DNA of 41,463 nt from Actinomycetes bacterium. Its GTDB lineage: Bacteria; Actinomycetota; Acidimicrobiia; Acidimicrobiales; Bog-793. Made by a program: the position numbers and the translations under genes. The stretch covers positions 1 through 41,463 of the forward strand of contig JAKATT010000183.1 of assembly GCA_021818615.1 (NCBI GenBank), read 5' to 3'. This document shows positions 1 to 5,535 of the stretch, in pieces. The stretch's first letter is position 1, and the number at the start of each line of letters is the position of its first letter. The notes under the pieces were generated by a model. The model ran no database searches, had not been told where the DNA came from, and saw only the letters and a list, made by a program, of their open reading frames with translations.

Positions 1-115
1 CCTCCCCGATCGCGGGTCATCATCGAGGGCTACTTCGGCGCGTCCGCTGCTCGAAGATCTCGCCGTCATCTGCCAGGACGAACAGCCAACGGAGCCTTCG
101 GCACCGCTTGACAAA

Positions 116-1130
116 TTGCGCTCCTTCGAGATGACTTCGCGAACGGATCGAGGTCTCATACCTCGTTCGTTGGCGACGCTGCCGGTCATGGGCATACAGC
201 CCATGTTGCAAAACCCCATGTCAAAGGTGGTTCTCACGGGCCCGGACGCCTGGGCCGAGCCCGCCCCGCCATCGGCTGCGGGATCCGAGGCCGAGCCGCC
301 GCTTCGAGTGCTCCCGCCGACTGGGCGCCAGCTCGTCGCCCTGCTCGGCACCCACGAGGTGCTCACCTCGGGCCAGCTGGTGCGCCTCACCGGGCTGCCC
401 GAGCGCACCGTCCAGCACCACCTCGGCCTGCTCTACCGAGACGGCCTCGTCAGCCGCGTCCGCCCGCCGCGTGAGGTCGGCACCAGCCCGTACCACTGCT
501 GGCCGACCGCCTTCGGCGCCGCTGCCATCGGCGCCGAGAAGCCTGGCGCGAGAAGCGACGACCTTGCCGGCGTGCAGGCCACCGCGGCGCTCAGCGAGCC
601 GTGGCCGGCCGTGCGCGACTGCAGGAAGGGAGTCGGCCTCGAACTGCGCGGCTGGCGGCGCCTCCCCTCCGGCCTCCCCTACCAGGACCCTCATACCGGG
701 ACGATCCGCGAGCTGCCGGCCGAGGCTCAGCTCAACGTCGCGCTCGGCCCGCTCGACATCGAAGTGACGATGCTTGTTGTCTCCCGGGTAGAGCGTGTTC
801 CCGTTGCCCGGCTCGCCGCGGTGCTGGCCCGCTTTGCCGGCTACCTCACCTCGTCGTACTCAGAGCGGTGCCCGCCGGTCCTCGCCGTCCTCGCCCGTAC
901 GCCACGGGTCGCAGAGCGGGTGCTCACCACCGCCGACACGCTCGGTGCGGCCCTCGGGCAGCCACCTCGAGGAAGAAGTCATCGCGACGGCGCGACGCCG
1001 GGTGGTGGTCGGGGTCGTCGAGCCCCACCCGGTCGGGCTCTCCACCGAGCCAGTGTGGGCCACGCCGGGCGATCGGCGCGCTCGGCGCCTCGTCGAGGTG
1101 CTCCCCGAGCATGCGGGGAGCACCAAGTGA
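116..1130 (+). pseudogene. Replication-relaxation family-like (winged-helix) protein, apparently frameshifted near 955-965
   Basis: The N-terminal part of ORF 116..1432 (LPPTGRQLVALLGTHEVLTSGQLVRLTGLPERTVQHHLGLLYRDGLVSRVRP...SPYHCW) resembles the wHTH of replication-relaxation proteins. After ~residue 282 that frame becomes Arg/Gly/Pro junk. A plausible C-terminus (HLEEEVIATARRRVVVGVVEPHPVGLSTEPVWATPGDRRARRLVEVL, stop at 1128-1130) continues in the frame of ORF 795..1130. The true start is uncertain (ATG at 218 is possible; the frame is open to the window edge). Confidence 0.5.
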
Positions 1131-1200
1131 AGGCGCACCCGGCGACCGCTCGCTCCCGTCGTGGCGGAGAGCCTCCGGCCGACCGGACGGCGCAGCTACC

Positions 1201-1312
1201 CCGCCATCCGCAATCCCAGCGGACCGGGAGCCCCCGCTATCCGCAAGGAGGGCCTACCGATCACCATCACCACCCGCAAAGCCGTGCTGACGGCGACGCC
1301 CGCCATCCGCAA
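1201..1312. repeat. Iteron-like array: 13-mer CCGCYATCCGCAA x4 at exact 33-bp phasing
   Basis: Copies start at 1201 (CCGCCATCCGCAA), 1234 (CCGCTATCCGCAA), 1267 (TCACCACCCGCAA, 10/13 match) and 1300 (CCGCCATCCGCAA). The spacers between them are unrelated. Confidence 0.8.
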
Positions 1313-1560
1313 GCGAGTAGTGGGAGCGCCGCGCCGATCGAGCATTTCGGCCTCCGAACGAACGGAAGGATCTGCCGCCAATGCGTCGCCACCGGAGCGC
1401 CGAACCTCCCCCGGTTTGGTTGTCACTCCTGATGTGGAGGAGTAGACACGTCCCCTTCGGTTGGGCGGTGTGCTGATTGGCATCACCACCGTGCCGACCG
1501 GAGGGGGCACCGCGGGTGGATGGTTCAGTGAGGGGCGGGTACTTCTCCTGGCCATGCGCG

Positions 1561-1629
1561 GGGACTTTTGTTGGCCACCAGCGGGGACCTCACATGGCCA
1601 CCAGCGGAGACTTTTCATGGCCACGGACA
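1561..1629. repeat. Three imperfect tandem 23-bp repeats (GGGACTTTTGTTGGCCACCAGCG-like)
   Basis: r1 is 1561-1583, r2 is 1584-1606 (18/23 identical to r1) and r3 is 1607-1629 (16/23). r3 contains the ATG at 1617 of the next CDS. Confidence 0.8.
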
Positions 1630-2234
1630 CCGGTATCGCTTTCTGGCGGACGAAGACGCCCTGGCCCGACGACTTCCACAACCGTGGCTACAAGAAGTGG
1701 GCAGCTGAGGTCCGCGACTTCTCGGACATCTGGTGGACGCAGTTCCGCAAACGGCTACACGACTGGATCGCCATTCGACCCGCCACGTATGCGGACGTGA
1801 CAGAAAGGTTCGTCGAGCGCCGGAATGCTCTTTCGGAGGCGTGGGCAATGAGCTGCGTCCCTTTCCAGAACCTCAATATCACCGGTGTGACGTGGGCGCA
1901 GGTCGGCGCGTTCGCCGATCTTGTCGGTGAGATCAAGCCGATGAAGGGCCTCCCCTCGCCGGTATTCACGTCGAAGTTCTGCCATTTCTTGCTCCCGAAA
2001 GTGTTCCCTGTCGTCGACAATGAGGGTTCGGGCAACCGTTGGCCCAGGTACCAGCAGTACTTCGAGCACGTGCAAGAGGTCTGGACGTCGACGTCCGAGG
2101 GAACCCGCGACGCTCTGATCGCAGCCATGACCAAGGCCGTCGAGGCGGCTGGTGCGCAGATGAATCACGAGTTTCCGATGGTCAACAAGATCGTGGAGCT
2201 GCGGCTCATCGGCAGGCAACACCCGCTCGGCTGA
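1617..2234 (+). CDS. Hypothetical protein (~205 aa, Trp-rich), unknown function
   Basis: ORF 1461..2234. I prefer the ATG at 1617 (MATDTGIAFW...) because the upstream part is covered by the 23-bp repeats. The motif SKFCHFLLPKVFPVVDN is vaguely reminiscent of OGG-fold/DUF-type proteins, but I cannot verify that. Confidence 0.55.
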   Translation: MATDTGIAFWRTKTPWPDDFHNRGYKKWAAEVRDFSDIWWTQFRKRLHDWIAIRPATYADVTERFVERRNALSEAWAMSCVPFQNLNITGVTWAQVGAFADLVGEIKPMKGLPSPVFTSKFCHFLLPKVFPVVDNEGSGNRWPRYQQYFEHVQEVWTSTSEGTRDALIAAMTKAVEAAGAQMNHEFPMVNKIVELRLIGRQHPLG

Positions 2235-2279
2235 CGCGCTTCGATCAGCGGTGCCAGTGATCTCTCCAAGTCGGGAACG

Positions 2280-3203
2280 GTGCACAATCGGAACGTGCGC
2301 ATCCCAGCTACGTTCGTCCCGGTAGATGCCGATCGACTTGCGCGCCTCGCCGGGTTCCTTCAGCGGGCGACAGGAGTAGAGGCCGGATACACCGAGGACG
2401 ATCAGACGTGGACAGGCACTCCCGGGTCGGCGGCTGATCTCGATCGCCAGTGGACCGAGCCGGGCATTCCGACCGAGAAGACCCGGCGAGCGATCGACAC
2501 TACGTACGCCGCCGCGCGGGTCGGGCTGATCGCCGCCACCGACCATGCCTCGTCTCTGTCCCGATTGATCACCGATCCCGCCCTCGGCGGCTGTCTCTCC
2601 GTCGAGGCAGTTGCGCGCTCAGCCGTCGAGACGGCGGCGCGCTCGTGGTGGCTGATGGAACCAAGGCTCACGCCCCGCGAGCGGGCTGCCCGGTTCTTCG
2701 CGGACCAGTTGTTCAGCGCCTACCAGGCAGAGGACATGGCGCGCCGCATGAAGTGGTCAGCCGGCGTCACCGGTTTCTCGCCAGAGGTCACCGTGATCAA
2801 GGCGAAGTGCGACGAGCTCGGGCTCACCTACGACGCCAACCGATCGGCGCCATCAGTGGACTCGCAGAGACGACCTGGTTCGACACCGCTGGTGGCGAAC
2901 CTATTGCGCGACACGATCTACTCCGCGTCGGACCAACTCGTCTATGCCCTCACCTCGGCGACCACACACGGCACGCACTTCGCGCTCATGCGATCGTTCA
3001 TCGACAGCGGTGAGAAGCATGGTGCCGACCCGATCTTCGATCGCCACCTCGACCACCGTCAGATCGAACCCGTCTGCGGCGTCGTTCTCGAAGCCTTCGC
3101 TGCAACCGTGACGCGTGTCGTTTGGCTCGCCAAGTGGGGCTGGATCAGGGTCGATGGCTTCCGGTCGCCGGTCCGCAACTTCCTGTACACGATGCCTTAC
3201 TGA
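2280..3203 (+). CDS. Hypothetical protein (~307 aa, predicted mostly helical), unknown function
   Basis: ORF 2280..3203 with a GTG start, 45 bp after the previous gene on the same strand. The start is uncertain because the first ~25 codons have weak GC3 bias. No family was recognised. Confidence 0.5.
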   Translation: MHNRNVRIPATFVPVDADRLARLAGFLQRATGVEAGYTEDDQTWTGTPGSAADLDRQWTEPGIPTEKTRRAIDTTYAAARVGLIAATDHASSLSRLITDPALGGCLSVEAVARSAVETAARSWWLMEPRLTPRERAARFFADQLFSAYQAEDMARRMKWSAGVTGFSPEVTVIKAKCDELGLTYDANRSAPSVDSQRRPGSTPLVANLLRDTIYSASDQLVYALTSATTHGTHFALMRSFIDSGEKHGADPIFDRHLDHRQIEPVCGVVLEAFAATVTRVVWLAKWGWIRVDGFRSPVRNFLYTMPY

Positions 3204-3326
3204 GATCGTGTTCACGGGGCGTTCCAGAGGATGCTCGCTACGAGCGCGCGATGGCCGCGCGATCGGCGGATGACAGGTGGCAGGGCCGGTGGTGAGAAAG
3301 CTACCCTGACCAGGGAAGTTAGCGAG

Positions 3327-3397
3327 AGCGGGCGACGGGAATCGAACCCGCGTTCTCAGCTTGGGAAGCTGATGTTCTGCCTCTGAACTACGCCCGC
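3327..3397 (-). tRNA. tRNA-Gly (anticodon CCC)
   Basis: The reverse complement reads GCGGGCGTAGTTCAGAGGCAGAACATCAGCTTCCCAAGCTGAGAACGCGGGTTCGATTCCCGTCGCCCGCT. The acceptor stem is GCGGGCG/CGCCCGC. The anticodon stem is TCAGC/GCTGA with loop TTCCCAA. A GGTTCGATTCC T-arm is present. CCA is not encoded. Confidence 0.9.
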
Positions 3398-3442
3398 GGC
3401 ACGCAAGACGATAGCGGACAGGCGAGCGACGCTCGCTGGGTC

Positions 3443-3467
3443 GACCGGGGCTCGTCGAGCCCCGGTC
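3443..3467 (-). terminator. Perfect 11-bp stem hairpin (GACCGGGGCTC-gtc-GAGCCCCGGTC) downstream of the permease gene
   Basis: The palindrome is read directly from the sequence. It lies ~100 nt after the permease stop on the minus strand. There is no clear U-tract. Confidence 0.35.
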
Positions 3468-3570
3468 CAACCCCACGGCTCCCCACCACTCGATCCTGCC
3501 GGGCGTGCTCGACGCCGGGCTCTCGCCTCACCATCCTCAAGGCTCCAAGGCTCTCCAGGGCACGATCCCG

Positions 3571-5535
3571 CTACGAGGCGCTGGCATCGCCAGGCTCGTG
3601 AGGCTCGTGGTGGTGCTCATGCCAGGGTTCTTCCATCTCCGGTACAGGCTCGAGCTTTGCTGCTCCACTGAGCGCCTGCTGCAATTCCTTCAGCTCGTCA
3701 GTCTCGAAGCCGCTCCACACAGCCCAGAAGAACGCCACCAGTCCGATACCTGCGGCGATCAGGTCACCCCACGGGAAGGCAATCGTCGGGTGCACTGGGT
3801 TGAACCCGTAATCGCCGTAGTACGAAAGAAGGAACAACGTCAGGCAGAGGAAGATGAACCACCACGACTTGTCGATGTGCATGCGCCCTTCCTCGTTCGA
3901 GAGCAGCCACGTCCCGACGGCCACGAGAACGACCGCTGCCGCAAAGGCGATGTAGTACGTCCCGAATGTCCAGGACCCGCTCACGGGGAGAGTACCCACT
4001 CGCATCATCCATCCGCCCTTTGCGGCGATGTAGATCCATACCAACAAGAACCCCAACCCGAGAGACAGTCCCTGCCCCTTAGAGATGAAACCGCGAGCCG
4101 GCGCATAGTAGAGCAGGTAGAGCACGACAGCGAGAAAGACGGCCGTCATTACCTGGACGAGCGTTGTGAACCCGCTCCAATACACCACCTCGGTGGCGGC
4201 GATGAAGCTCAGGGCAGACAACACCCAGACCGCCGGCAGGCGGACGGGCCGGTGCCAGTCGGGCGCAACGCGGCGCAGCACCATGACTCCGGCCCCGCCC
4301 ATCAGATAGGTCAGCACGGTCGCCGACGTGATGAAGCCGACAAGGCCGTACCAGCTCGGCTCTCGGACGAAGAAGAGGCCACCGACAAAGAACGAAGCCA
4401 CAAGAGCCGGCCACGGGATCGAGAAGCGGTTCATGGTCTGCAACCCGGGTGGAAGCAGGCGCTGCACCGACATGCCGTAGAGGGTCCGAACCGACGTGCC
4501 CATGTAGACGTAGCCCGTCCCTGCCGGCGAGATCACGGCGTCCCAGATCAACAAGGCTGCAAAGCCGGCAAGGACTCCGATGCCCGCTGCGTGCAGCTCA
4601 CGGTAGAAGGGACCGGTAGCCCAGGCTCCCTTGCCGATAAGGCCCCAGTTCCCGATCTTCACACCCATGCTCCCCCACCTGATCCCACCGGTGAAGGCGA
4701 GCTGGAGGAGCGTGTAGAGCACGATGGCGATCGTGACGGAGATGATCGTCGCCCGCGGAACATCCCTCTGCGGCCGACGCGCTTCGCCCGCGTACTCGAG
4801 CGCCTGGCGGAACCCGAGATAAGAGAAGACGATGCCTGTCGTCGCGACCGCTTCGAAGATCGGCGCCTTGCCAAGCGGGGTAAAGCCTCCAACGCTGGAG
4901 CCGAAGTTCGAGCTTCGGAAGGCAAAGAAGACGAAGATGAACGTGAGGGTCGGGATGACGAGCTTCCACAGCACCACCCAGCGGTTGACCTCCGAGAGGA
5001 ACCTGATCCCCATGAAGTTCAGGAAGAAGAAGAAGAGCAGGAACCCGAAGGCCAGCATCACGCCCTTCGGCCAGGAGAGGATCGTGCTGTTGGGCGAGAT
5101 CAGCCCGATCGTGGGGAACTTCGAGGAGAGGTAGGTGACCGAAGCCTCTGCCTCGATCGCCGGCACGGACACCGCTGACAGCAGGTAAGCCCAGCCGAGC
5201 AGCATGCCCGTGAAGCCGCCGTGGGTGAGCTGCGGGTACCGGGCGAGCGCCCCGGTCCTTGGCAGCATCGCGGCGATCTCCATGTACGTCAGCGCGATGA
5301 ACAGCACGCAGATGCCGCCGACCACCCACGAGACCACAGCGGCGGGCCCTGCGACGCTGTCAGCACTGAGCACGGCAAAGAGCCAGCCCGAGCCGATGAT
5401 CGCTCCGAGCGAGAGCGCCGTCAGCTGCGTCAGGCCCATGGTCTTTCGCAGCTTCAGGTCGGAATGTTCGAAACTAGCTATGTGCTCAGTTGGCTCTGGC
5501 TCGGGTACGGCGACTTCTTCTCTCGCGAGTGCCAC
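3571..5535 (-). CDS. APC-family amino acid permease
   Basis: 654 aa with about 12 or more hydrophobic segments and the N-terminal APC signature LTALSLGAIIGSGWLF. The GTG start is preceded by GGGGGAGGTGG (SD) with a 4-nt spacer. The C-terminal tail is acidic and His-rich. Confidence 0.85.
   Translation of the reverse strand: MALAREEVAVPEPEPTEHIASFEHSDLKLRKTMGLTQLTALSLGAIIGSGWLFAVLSADSVAGPAAVVSWVVGGICVLFIALTYMEIAAMLPRTGALARYPQLTHGGFTGMLLGWAYLLSAVSVPAIEAEASVTYLSSKFPTIGLISPNSTILSWPKGVMLAFGFLLFFFFLNFMGIRFLSEVNRWVVLWKLVIPTLTFIFVFFAFRSSNFGSSVGGFTPLGKAPIFEAVATTGIVFSYLGFRQALEYAGEARRPQRDVPRATIISVTIAIVLYTLLQLAFTGGIRWGSMGVKIGNWGLIGKGAWATGPFYRELHAAGIGVLAGFAALLIWDAVISPAGTGYVYMGTSVRTLYGMSVQRLLPPGLQTMNRFSIPWPALVASFFVGGLFFVREPSWYGLVGFITSATVLTYLMGGAGVMVLRRVAPDWHRPVRLPAVWVLSALSFIAATEVVYWSGFTTLVQVMTAVFLAVVLYLLYYAPARGFISKGQGLSLGLGFLLVWIYIAAKGGWMMRVGTLPVSGSWTFGTYYIAFAAAVVLVAVGTWLLSNEEGRMHIDKSWWFIFLCLTLFLLSYYGDYGFNPVHPTIAFPWGDLIAAGIGLVAFFWAVWSGFETDELKELQQALSGAAKLEPVPEMEEPWHEHHHEPHEPGDASAS

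Follow-up and report, generated by a model that had tools for sequence, protein, structure and literature searches.

What is known of DNA processing by MOBC relaxases comes essentially from the study of a single prototype, the TraX protein of the Enterococcus faecalis conjugative plasmid pAD1. This protein has an N-terminal winged helix-turn-helix (HTH) domain and binds its transfer origin (oriT) at five short direct repeats located 70-120 bp from nic (PMC12857230). In Pfam, the MobC relaxases are represented by PF13814, named Replic_Relax (PMC5357655), and the proteins of this family have a PD-(D/E)XK fold (PMC3424549). We analysed a stretch of 41,463 nucleotides from an Actinomycetes bacterium (contig JAKATT010000183.1; hereafter the window) in which four short direct repeats, at positions 1201 to 1312, lie in what comparison with related loci identifies as the remnant of an integrative element. 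Intact relatives of this element encode two PF13814 paralogs, RR1 and RR2, an open reading frame (ORF) between them that we call ORFx, and a large serine recombinase. As at the pAD1 oriT, the proteins encoded next to the repeats belong to PF13814/MobC and have an N-terminal winged HTH (PMC12857230, PMC5357655), and the five direct repeats lying apart from nic in pAD1 can be set beside the 2-4 direct repeats found here by two PF13814 genes (PMC12857230). However, the sequences are unrelated and the host here is a high-GC actinobacterium; the repeats follow a 33-bp lattice within coding sequence; there are two PF13814 paralogs rather than the single protein of pAD1; and they belong to a 4.2-kb integrative element, whereas pAD1 is a conjugative plasmid.

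The streptococcal integrative mobilizable elements of IME_Class_8 resemble the elements described here in having a compact module of a serine recombinase and a PF13814/MobC relaxase (PMC5357655). They differ in possessing a VirD4 coupling protein, which is absent from our elements. The latter use the 3' end of tRNA-Gly as their insertion site, their recombinase gene extending into the tRNA, and add a second, catalytically degenerate paralog and ORFx.

Actinomycete integrative and conjugative elements (AICEs), brought up in the earlier note, are likewise tRNA-associated integrative elements of Actinomycetota, and their known modules are a tyrosine integrase, RepSA or RepAM, and an FtsK-like TraB. 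None of these AICE modules was seen in the four-gene module studied here, which has a large serine recombinase and PF13814 proteins instead. Plasmid iterons are phased direct-repeat protein-binding sites, and the iterons of the phage lambda ori lie inside gene O. The present repeats are similar in that phased direct repeats are tolerated inside an ORF, but no AT-rich region accompanies them and their core is only 9-10 bp long; unlike lambda O, ORFx is not initiator-like, with no Pfam match and one confidently predicted helix. Direct-repeat binding sites of relaxases are nothing new in themselves; what is new is the 33-bp lattice embedded in coding sequence, the pairing of an apparently live with an apparently dead MOBC paralog, and the minimal element at tRNA-Gly.

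The repeat array and its conservation

Four 13-mers were found on the forward strand of the window: CCGCCATCCGCAA at 1201-1213, with the core CATCCGCAA at 1205-1213, CCGCTATCCGCAA at 1234-1246, TCACCACCCGCAA at 1267-1279, and CCGCCATCCGCAA again, followed by a G, at 1300-1312. The positions given in the earlier note and the start-to-start distance of exactly 33 bp were reproduced, and its description of the 20-bp spacers as mutually unrelated holds. A repeat finder likewise put the three close copies into one family, 14 nt long, with spacings of 33 and 66. The core of the second repeat begins with a T where the family has a C (the aligned copy of locus L005 is CATCCGCAAG), and the third repeat carries the core variant CACCCGCAA, shared with loci L005, L013, L031 and L035. 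CCGCYATCCGCAA has three exact matches in the 41.4-kb window, every one of them within the array, against a shuffle expectation of 0.01 (0/100 shuffles reached three), and allowing two mismatches added one match, which is at chance level. The array is real, local and non-random.

We compared the array with homologous loci taken from contigs with close RR1 homologs, from a scan of species-representative genomes (26 loci) and from metagenomes (11 loci); the motif statistics are based on 27 non-redundant loci, with a nucleotide identity of at most 93%. All loci carrying the module are from metagenome-assembled genomes (MAGs) of Acidimicrobiia or "Actinomycetes", and they share one order: RR1, an interval of ~600 bp (ORFx), RR2 and the large serine recombinase. 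The motif consensus is YCCC(R)CCATCCGCAAG, with the core CATCCGCAA, and each element has 2-4 direct copies. The 33-bp lattice is kept in the homologous loci. Adjacent copies are spaced by 33 bp in 33 cases, by 66 bp in six, by 99 bp in six, and by 30 bp and 63 bp in one case each, which makes 45 of the 47 spacings multiples of 33. The spacers cannot be aligned across loci and are shuffled as whole 33-bp units among close relatives, and locus L010 is short by exactly one unit. An inverted copy of the motif, CTTGCGGATG, was present in the same gene, ORFx, in 26/26 loci, and was located 260 bp past the last direct copy in 12/25.

A dispersed repeat, which the earlier note had named as a refutation of its reading, was rejected: within the window exact CCGCYATCCGCAA occurs only in the array, the one further match is at chance level, and exact CATCCGCAAG is nearly confined to ORFx among the 48 fetched loci.

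Constraint on the motif within ORFx

The earlier note had placed the array in a non-coding gap with no convincing coding sequence between 1131 and 1616. This reading was rejected because a conserved ORF fills the entire RR1-RR2 interval in the relatives, and positions 1127 to ~1403 of the window are its 5' remnant, in a third frame. Three-frame translation of 23 loci showed that ORFx is continuous and conserved across this interval, with a length of ~190-206 aa, a start that overlaps the RR1 stop (GTGA or ATGA) and a stop that overlaps the RR2 start (GCATGA). It was also called independently as a gene in many metagenomes, at 190-206 aa, and its length differences among loci are all multiples of 3. 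In ~27 non-redundant Acidimicrobiia loci the array sits in the first half of ORFx, a translationally coupled ORF in whose frame the repeats are translated as (R/H)HPQ and not as PAIRK. The C-terminal half of the protein is conserved (PPPGALRPLARALLSVAAEVHAAR...LRM...HPVR...PATPERT...PPPV.NPDC.GDCA), and the 3' half of the gene has an excess of third-position substitutions (96/84/156 by codon position, p = 2e-6); no codon-phase signal was seen in the 5' half (219/212/238, p = 0.44) or in the spacers. ORFx has no Pfam match, and its AlphaFold model, which is of low confidence (mean predicted local distance difference test score, pLDDT, 56; predicted template modelling score, pTM, 0.19), has one helix, at residues 115-132, and no other secondary structure; the protein is probably largely disordered.

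A real gene around the array raises the possibility that only the peptide matters. In that case (R/H)HPQ, recurring once per 11 residues, would be a short linear motif of the ORFx N-terminus, which is modelled with low confidence and probably disordered, and the identity of the DNA would be a by-product. HPQ is nearly invariant in the protein alignment, all copies use a single frame, and ORFx has the marks of a gene: its frame (frame B) is open in at least 15 divergent loci, its length changes by multiples of 3 and its 3' substitutions are of the coding type. However, an equal phase follows automatically from duplication of a 33-bp unit together with in-frame insertions and deletions, and the rare codons CAT and CAA and one proline codon are fixed far above codon usage. 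In 65 HPQ instances from the 27 loci, histidine was encoded by CAT in 54 (background 19.6%), proline by CCG in 63 (background 39.8%) and glutamine by CAA in 64 (background 20.3%), and the base following these codons was a G in 54/65. Moreover, the same 9-10 nucleotides in the inverted copy encode a different peptide, L-R-M, with the rare leucine codon TTG in 24 loci (background 6.3%). The conserved ORF that a coding tandem repeat calls for is thus present (frame B), but the selection on amino acids with free synonymous sites is not, and we consider a role of the peptide alone quite improbable.

The same nucleotides read in another frame as PAIR(K/N) every 11 aa, in ORF 1161-1445, which could be a gene overlapping ORFx or be made by read-through of the RR1 stop. 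This frame continues that of RR1 past the stop, uses common codons (ATC, CGC and AAG) and is open through the array in 26/26 non-redundant loci, and one database gene call (P0117) starts in it. Open frames are, however, expected by default at ~70% GC, and in 14 of the 26 loci the stretch from the RR1 stop to the first repeat contains no ATG, GTG or TTG. In L034 the frame is closed by a stop codon ahead of the array, the downstream translation is not conserved, whereas that of frame B is, and the substitutions show no codon-phase signal favouring the PAIRK frame. A third-position bias seen there in a first quick count of the window against L005 was not upheld by a larger, multi-clade count. By these comparisons, a conserved gene in this frame, which the earlier note had kept in view as a challenge to its own reading, is largely refuted and in our judgement barely tenable. 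The arginine codon of the PAIRK frame is nearly always CGC (background 45%), and neither frame's peptide accounts for the invariance of the motif.

Rare codons mark ORFx beyond the direct repeats. Columns of conserved residues were fixed on rare codons in 15/55 cases in ORFx, versus 13/748 in RR1, RR2 and the recombinase together (Fisher p = 9e-12). Part of this excess comes from the sequence (G/C)TCCGT, found in all intact loci in 3-4 copies with a 12-nt period directly after the inverted copy (about 4917-4965 in L005); it codes for ..VR..LR..LR, and its arginine codon is CGT in 60/96 (background 11.6%). These copies are followed by the block TCTCCCGCCACTCCT, in which the aligned serine and threonine columns are fixed on the rare codons TCT and ACT. 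Both the (G/C)TCCGT array and the TCTCCCGCCACTCCT block look like further DNA-level sites. A conserved, GC-rich hairpin noticed by eye in the block coding for ALRPLARA was dropped, the stem not being kept in L016, L017 and L018.

Judged by its codons, the motif is kept by selection on nucleotides and not on the peptide, and is embedded in the fast-evolving 5' half of ORFx; the array very probably acts as an array of sites at the DNA level. The protein-binding array proposed in the earlier note is upheld to this extent, the nucleotide-level constraint and the inverted copy both fitting binding sites, but its description as non-coding and as origin iterons is not.

Conservation of nucleotides could also reflect an element acting in RNA or in transferred single-stranded DNA, in which the direct copies would pair with the inverted copy, the long-range stem in the RR1-ORFx-RR2 mRNA tuning translation of ORFx or RR2. 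The complementarity is perfect over 10 nt, and in 3/6 ORFx RNAs the minimum free energy fold joins the inverted copy to a direct one. This pairing is missing from the other 3/6 folds, however, and the variants of the inverted copy in L026, L034, L033 and L046 are uncompensated in the direct copies. There is no evident reason for an RNA to carry several redundant 5' arms on a strict 33-nt lattice, and Rfam gave no match except tRNA, which leaves this explanation highly improbable.

Candidate binding proteins and proposed function of the array

RR2 matches PF13814 with E = 6.5e-45 and has an invariant PDG...LEYDRG.E. RR1 is a full-length paralog of RR2 (hhalign probability 97.8%) in which the conserved acidic residues of RR2 are replaced, and the RR1 gene of the window also matches ArsR/MarR-type HTH models of Pfam besides PF13814. 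A search of the PDB sequences with RR2 gave weak HTH matches only. In the intact relatives the array adjoins a PF13814 relaxase gene; the window keeps only a frameshifted, catalytically degenerate RR1. A distant homolog of RR2, annotated as a replication-relaxation family protein, was found on a plasmid of Embleya sp. (L049; NZ_CP108778.1, 282728-283723). It is encoded directly downstream of genes for an ATP-binding protein and a type IV coupling protein and upstream of an NlpC/P60 hydrolase gene, a neighbourhood that, by these annotations, is a conjugation-cluster context.

By analogy with pAD1, we propose that the repeats are binding sites for the winged-helix Replic_Relax proteins of the element, probably for conjugative transfer, and we give this proposal about an even chance of being right. 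The N-terminal winged-helix domains of these MOBC-type proteins would bind the repeats, RR2 being the PD-(D/E)XK nuclease and RR1, without the acidic residues of RR2, a binding or accessory partner. The 33-bp spacing, about three helical turns, would set the proteins on roughly one face of the helix and allow cooperative assembly, possibly with looping to the inverted site. The repeats would thereby nucleate a relaxosome-like complex and serve as the "bind" part of an oriT on the putative excised circle, and the element would be a minimal integrative mobilizable element using the mating apparatus of another element. Because the element has almost no intergenic DNA, its cis-acting sites must overlap coding sequence. 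We infer by the same analogy both the identity of the binding protein and the purpose, transfer rather than replication or regulation.

Several points weigh against this proposal. The four-gene element has no coupling-protein or mating-pore genes, and the analogy with pAD1 is based on family membership and the bare presence of direct repeats. Many actinobacteria conjugate double-stranded DNA without a relaxase, and service as an oriT may not be what the sites are for. A spacing of 33 bp makes 3.14 turns at 10.5 bp per turn, so that the copies do not fall exactly on one face. The relatives of the element are all metagenome-assembled, and the motif instances across loci are phylogenetically related, so that binomial p-values overstate their independence. 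Finally, the motif is always in one reading frame and encodes the conserved (R/H)HPQ, for which a role of the peptide, alone or in addition, is possible.

The repeats might instead be iterons of a replication origin inside a gene, bound by an initiator (a "replication-relaxation" protein) for the excised 4.2-kb circle. An array inside coding sequence has its parallel in gene O of phage lambda, the repeats stand in helical phase on a conserved 33-bp lattice, and some genomes have several copies of the element (L025 and L026 share a contig). On the other hand, the core of 9-10 bp is short compared with typical iterons of 17-22 bp, and there is no AT-rich unwinding element nearby, the GC content being 0.64-0.76 throughout 1-1650. 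A Pfam scan of the local window ORFs and of ORFx, RR2 and the recombinase gave only Replic_Relax and weak HTH matches near the array and no known Rep family, and no NCBIfam Rep match was found among the window ORFs scanned. The phased repeats do adjoin genes of a family whose name refers to replication and relaxation of plasmids, for which both roles are listed (PMC3424549), but PF13814 is regarded as the relaxase family MobC (PMC5357655, PMC12857230). The plasmid or integrative-element origin suggested in the earlier note is thus unsupported for want of an AT-rich unwinding region and a known Rep initiator family, and we think it unlikely.

Regulation is a further possible use of the sites. 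The direct repeats and the inverted copy could be operators at which RR1, ORFx or a host factor regulates the expression of RR2 and the recombinase, or the directionality of excision, through a roadblock or looping within the operon. Direct repeats with a distal inverted site at a conserved 260 bp would suit looping, RR1 combines an ArsR/MarR-like winged HTH with a degenerate catalytic site, and the first prediction made for the PD-(D/E)XK Replic_Relax proteins was that they regulate transcription (PMC3424549). The sites are, however, ~1 kb downstream of the promoter-like TTGACT at the left end of the element, the one promoter considered, and not at it, and an operator function seems to us improbable.

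The transfer reading can be taken further. ORFx may be primarily a cis-acting DNA scaffold, its frame kept open only for translational coupling of RR1 and RR2, and the string of sites (the CATCCGCAAG array, the inverted copy 260 bp off, the 12-bp-phased (G/C)TCCGT and TCTCCCGCCACTCCT) may be the complete oriT of undescribed minimal 4.2-kb mobilizable elements targeting tRNA-Gly, the catalytically dead MOBC paralog binding the sites and the live paralog nicking. We offer this extended version as a speculation, and consider it doubtful.

If the binding-site proposal is true, the array would be a sequence-defined candidate oriT and binding site for MOBC/Replic_Relax proteins in Actinomycetota. 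The elements would form a very small integrative family in uncultured Acidimicrobiia, with a pair of MOBC paralogs, an ORF whose product is probably disordered for the most part, and a serine recombinase running into tRNA-Gly. They would also offer a clean natural case of DNA sites, predicted to bind protein, that are held in coding sequence through fixed rare codons.

The integrative element and its relatives

The intact element is ~4.2 kb long and consists of a putative promoter followed by four genes, RR1, ORFx, RR2 and the large serine recombinase. Its insertion site in uncultured Acidimicrobiia is a tRNA-Gly gene, at the 3' end. The recombinase gene was found in all intact loci, and its product has the Resolvase, Recombinase and Zn_ribbon_recom domains. 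The intact loci therefore combine a site-specific recombinase of their own with a defined chromosomal target, as expected of an integrative element. The last codons of the recombinase gene overlap the 3' end of the tRNA-Gly gene (GAGCGGGCGACGGGAATCGAACCCGC) in intact elements, and the last ~10 codons (..RERATGIEPA) are the reverse complement of this end (L005 7565-7639; L011 4614-4688; L040 6464-6539; window 3323-3397). The tRNA region of the window and positions 7565-7639 of L005, at the 3' end of the recombinase gene, are 100% identical over 75 bp. L005, L007 and L036 have a target tRNA-Gly identical to window 3323-3397, and L011 and L040 have another one. Since the two target genes share a 26-nt end, crossover probably takes place within the T-arm or the acceptor region.

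At the left end, a promoter-like TTGACT followed by ...TCTCATA is conserved in window 132-170 and in L005, L011, L013, L014 and L040. Intact left ends have a further ~25 nt (AAATCTTCGSCRAMCCC), which the window does not have, and the left flanks of the elements hold GAAATC-like strings resembling a tRNA T-arm. Three divergent loci (L013 9943, L022 9928 and L035 9868) have an additional copy of CACCCGCAAG ~150 bp short of the recombinase gene's end, and none was found, within one mismatch, in L005, L017 and L020.

L025 and L026 lie ~11.5 kb apart on contig CAVYKV010000003.1, with recombinase fragments between them, and diverged copies of the element are paired within single MAGs (L012/L016 and L027/L028); by these arrangements the element is multi-copy and accreting. 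Frameshifted copies are found in the databases. P0014 (452 aa, on a 229-kb contig) passes from RR1 into a third frame across the array, and P0117 (191 aa), which begins in the PAIRK frame, ends in the ORFx frame. From these two frameshifts, decay of the element appears to be common. A phage or satellite origin was rejected because the viral contigs searched contained no relatives of the element.

The copy in the window

The remnant in the window extends from 132 to 1403 on the forward strand, as delimited by blastn of the loci against the window and by alignment at the right break, and is 86-89% identical to the intact copies L005, L013, L014 and L040. Its first gene is an RR1 pseudogene at 188-1130 (forward strand; alternative start at 203), a Replic_Relax (PF13814) paralog with an N-terminal winged HTH, whose true stop is the TGA at 1128-1130. 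Alignment to relatives showed that its frame is shifted by a 2-bp deletion between 956 and 957, and the GC content by codon position places the switch of frame near 950. The frame-mended RR1 (313 aa) matches homologs of 305-312 aa across 98-100% of its length. The 5' remnant of ORFx, ~80-90 codons at 1127-1403 (forward strand), was delimited by tblastn and by the three-frame comparison of the 23 loci, with residues 1-80 of ORFx at 1127-1366. Its GTG start overlaps the RR1 stop (GTGA), a 4-nt insertion lies at about 1355-1358, and homology is lost after 1403.

In place of the 3' part of ORFx, RR2 and the serine recombinase, blastn and Pfam showed a non-element segment at 1404-3322 (forward strand), and neither RR2 nor the recombinase was found when the proteins and DNA of the loci were compared against the window. 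The integration target, a tRNA-Gly(CCC) gene identified with ARAGORN and Rfam, follows at 3326-3397 on the reverse strand. The earlier note had described a replication-relaxation-like gene in a tRNA-adjacent islet. This setting is confirmed, the gene being of the PF13814, MOBC type and the tRNA a tRNA-Gly, and on comparison with the relatives the islet is the wreck of a ~4.2-kb integrative element. Because RR1 is frameshifted, ORFx truncated, the core of repeat 2 mutated, and RR2 and the recombinase gone, the window copy is, as far as its sequence can tell, a decayed, non-functional relic. Without RR2 or the recombinase the array is unlikely to work here, and because the local copy is a relic it has little consequence for the genome of the window itself.

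The non-element segment has two ORFs, 1617-2234 (205 aa, no family) and 2280-3203 (307 aa). Neither was matched by NCBIfam or PADLOC, and Pfam gave only a weak DUF5677 match to the 307-aa ORF. A 205-aa gene of L005 was considered as a homolog of ORF 1617-2234 and rejected on comparison.

Positions 1-3770 of the window are identical to a 3.8-kb MAG contig (L004), both sequences beginning at window 1, and window 1475 is exactly where the contigs of three further assemblies start (L001-L003, 99.2-99.6% identical). These common ends suggest repeat or strain-variant edges that break assemblies at 1475 and 1. Inside the 3' end of RR1, a perfect 10-bp stem with a 6-nt loop (GTGCTCCCCG AGCATG CGGGGAGCAC) occupies 1098-1123, with 3 nt between it and the downstream GTG start of ORFx; in L005 the stem looks weaker. 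A separate tandem array is located at 1535-1624 in the non-element segment, with a 23-bp unit (consensus GCGGGGACTTCTCCTGGCCACCA), ~3.9 copies and 76% matches. A 17-mer taken from it, TGGCCACCAGCGGRGAC, had five matches at three mismatches, versus 0.64 expected in shuffles. The 23-bp array ends on the ATG (1617) of ORF 1617-2234, for which it could be an operator or iteron.

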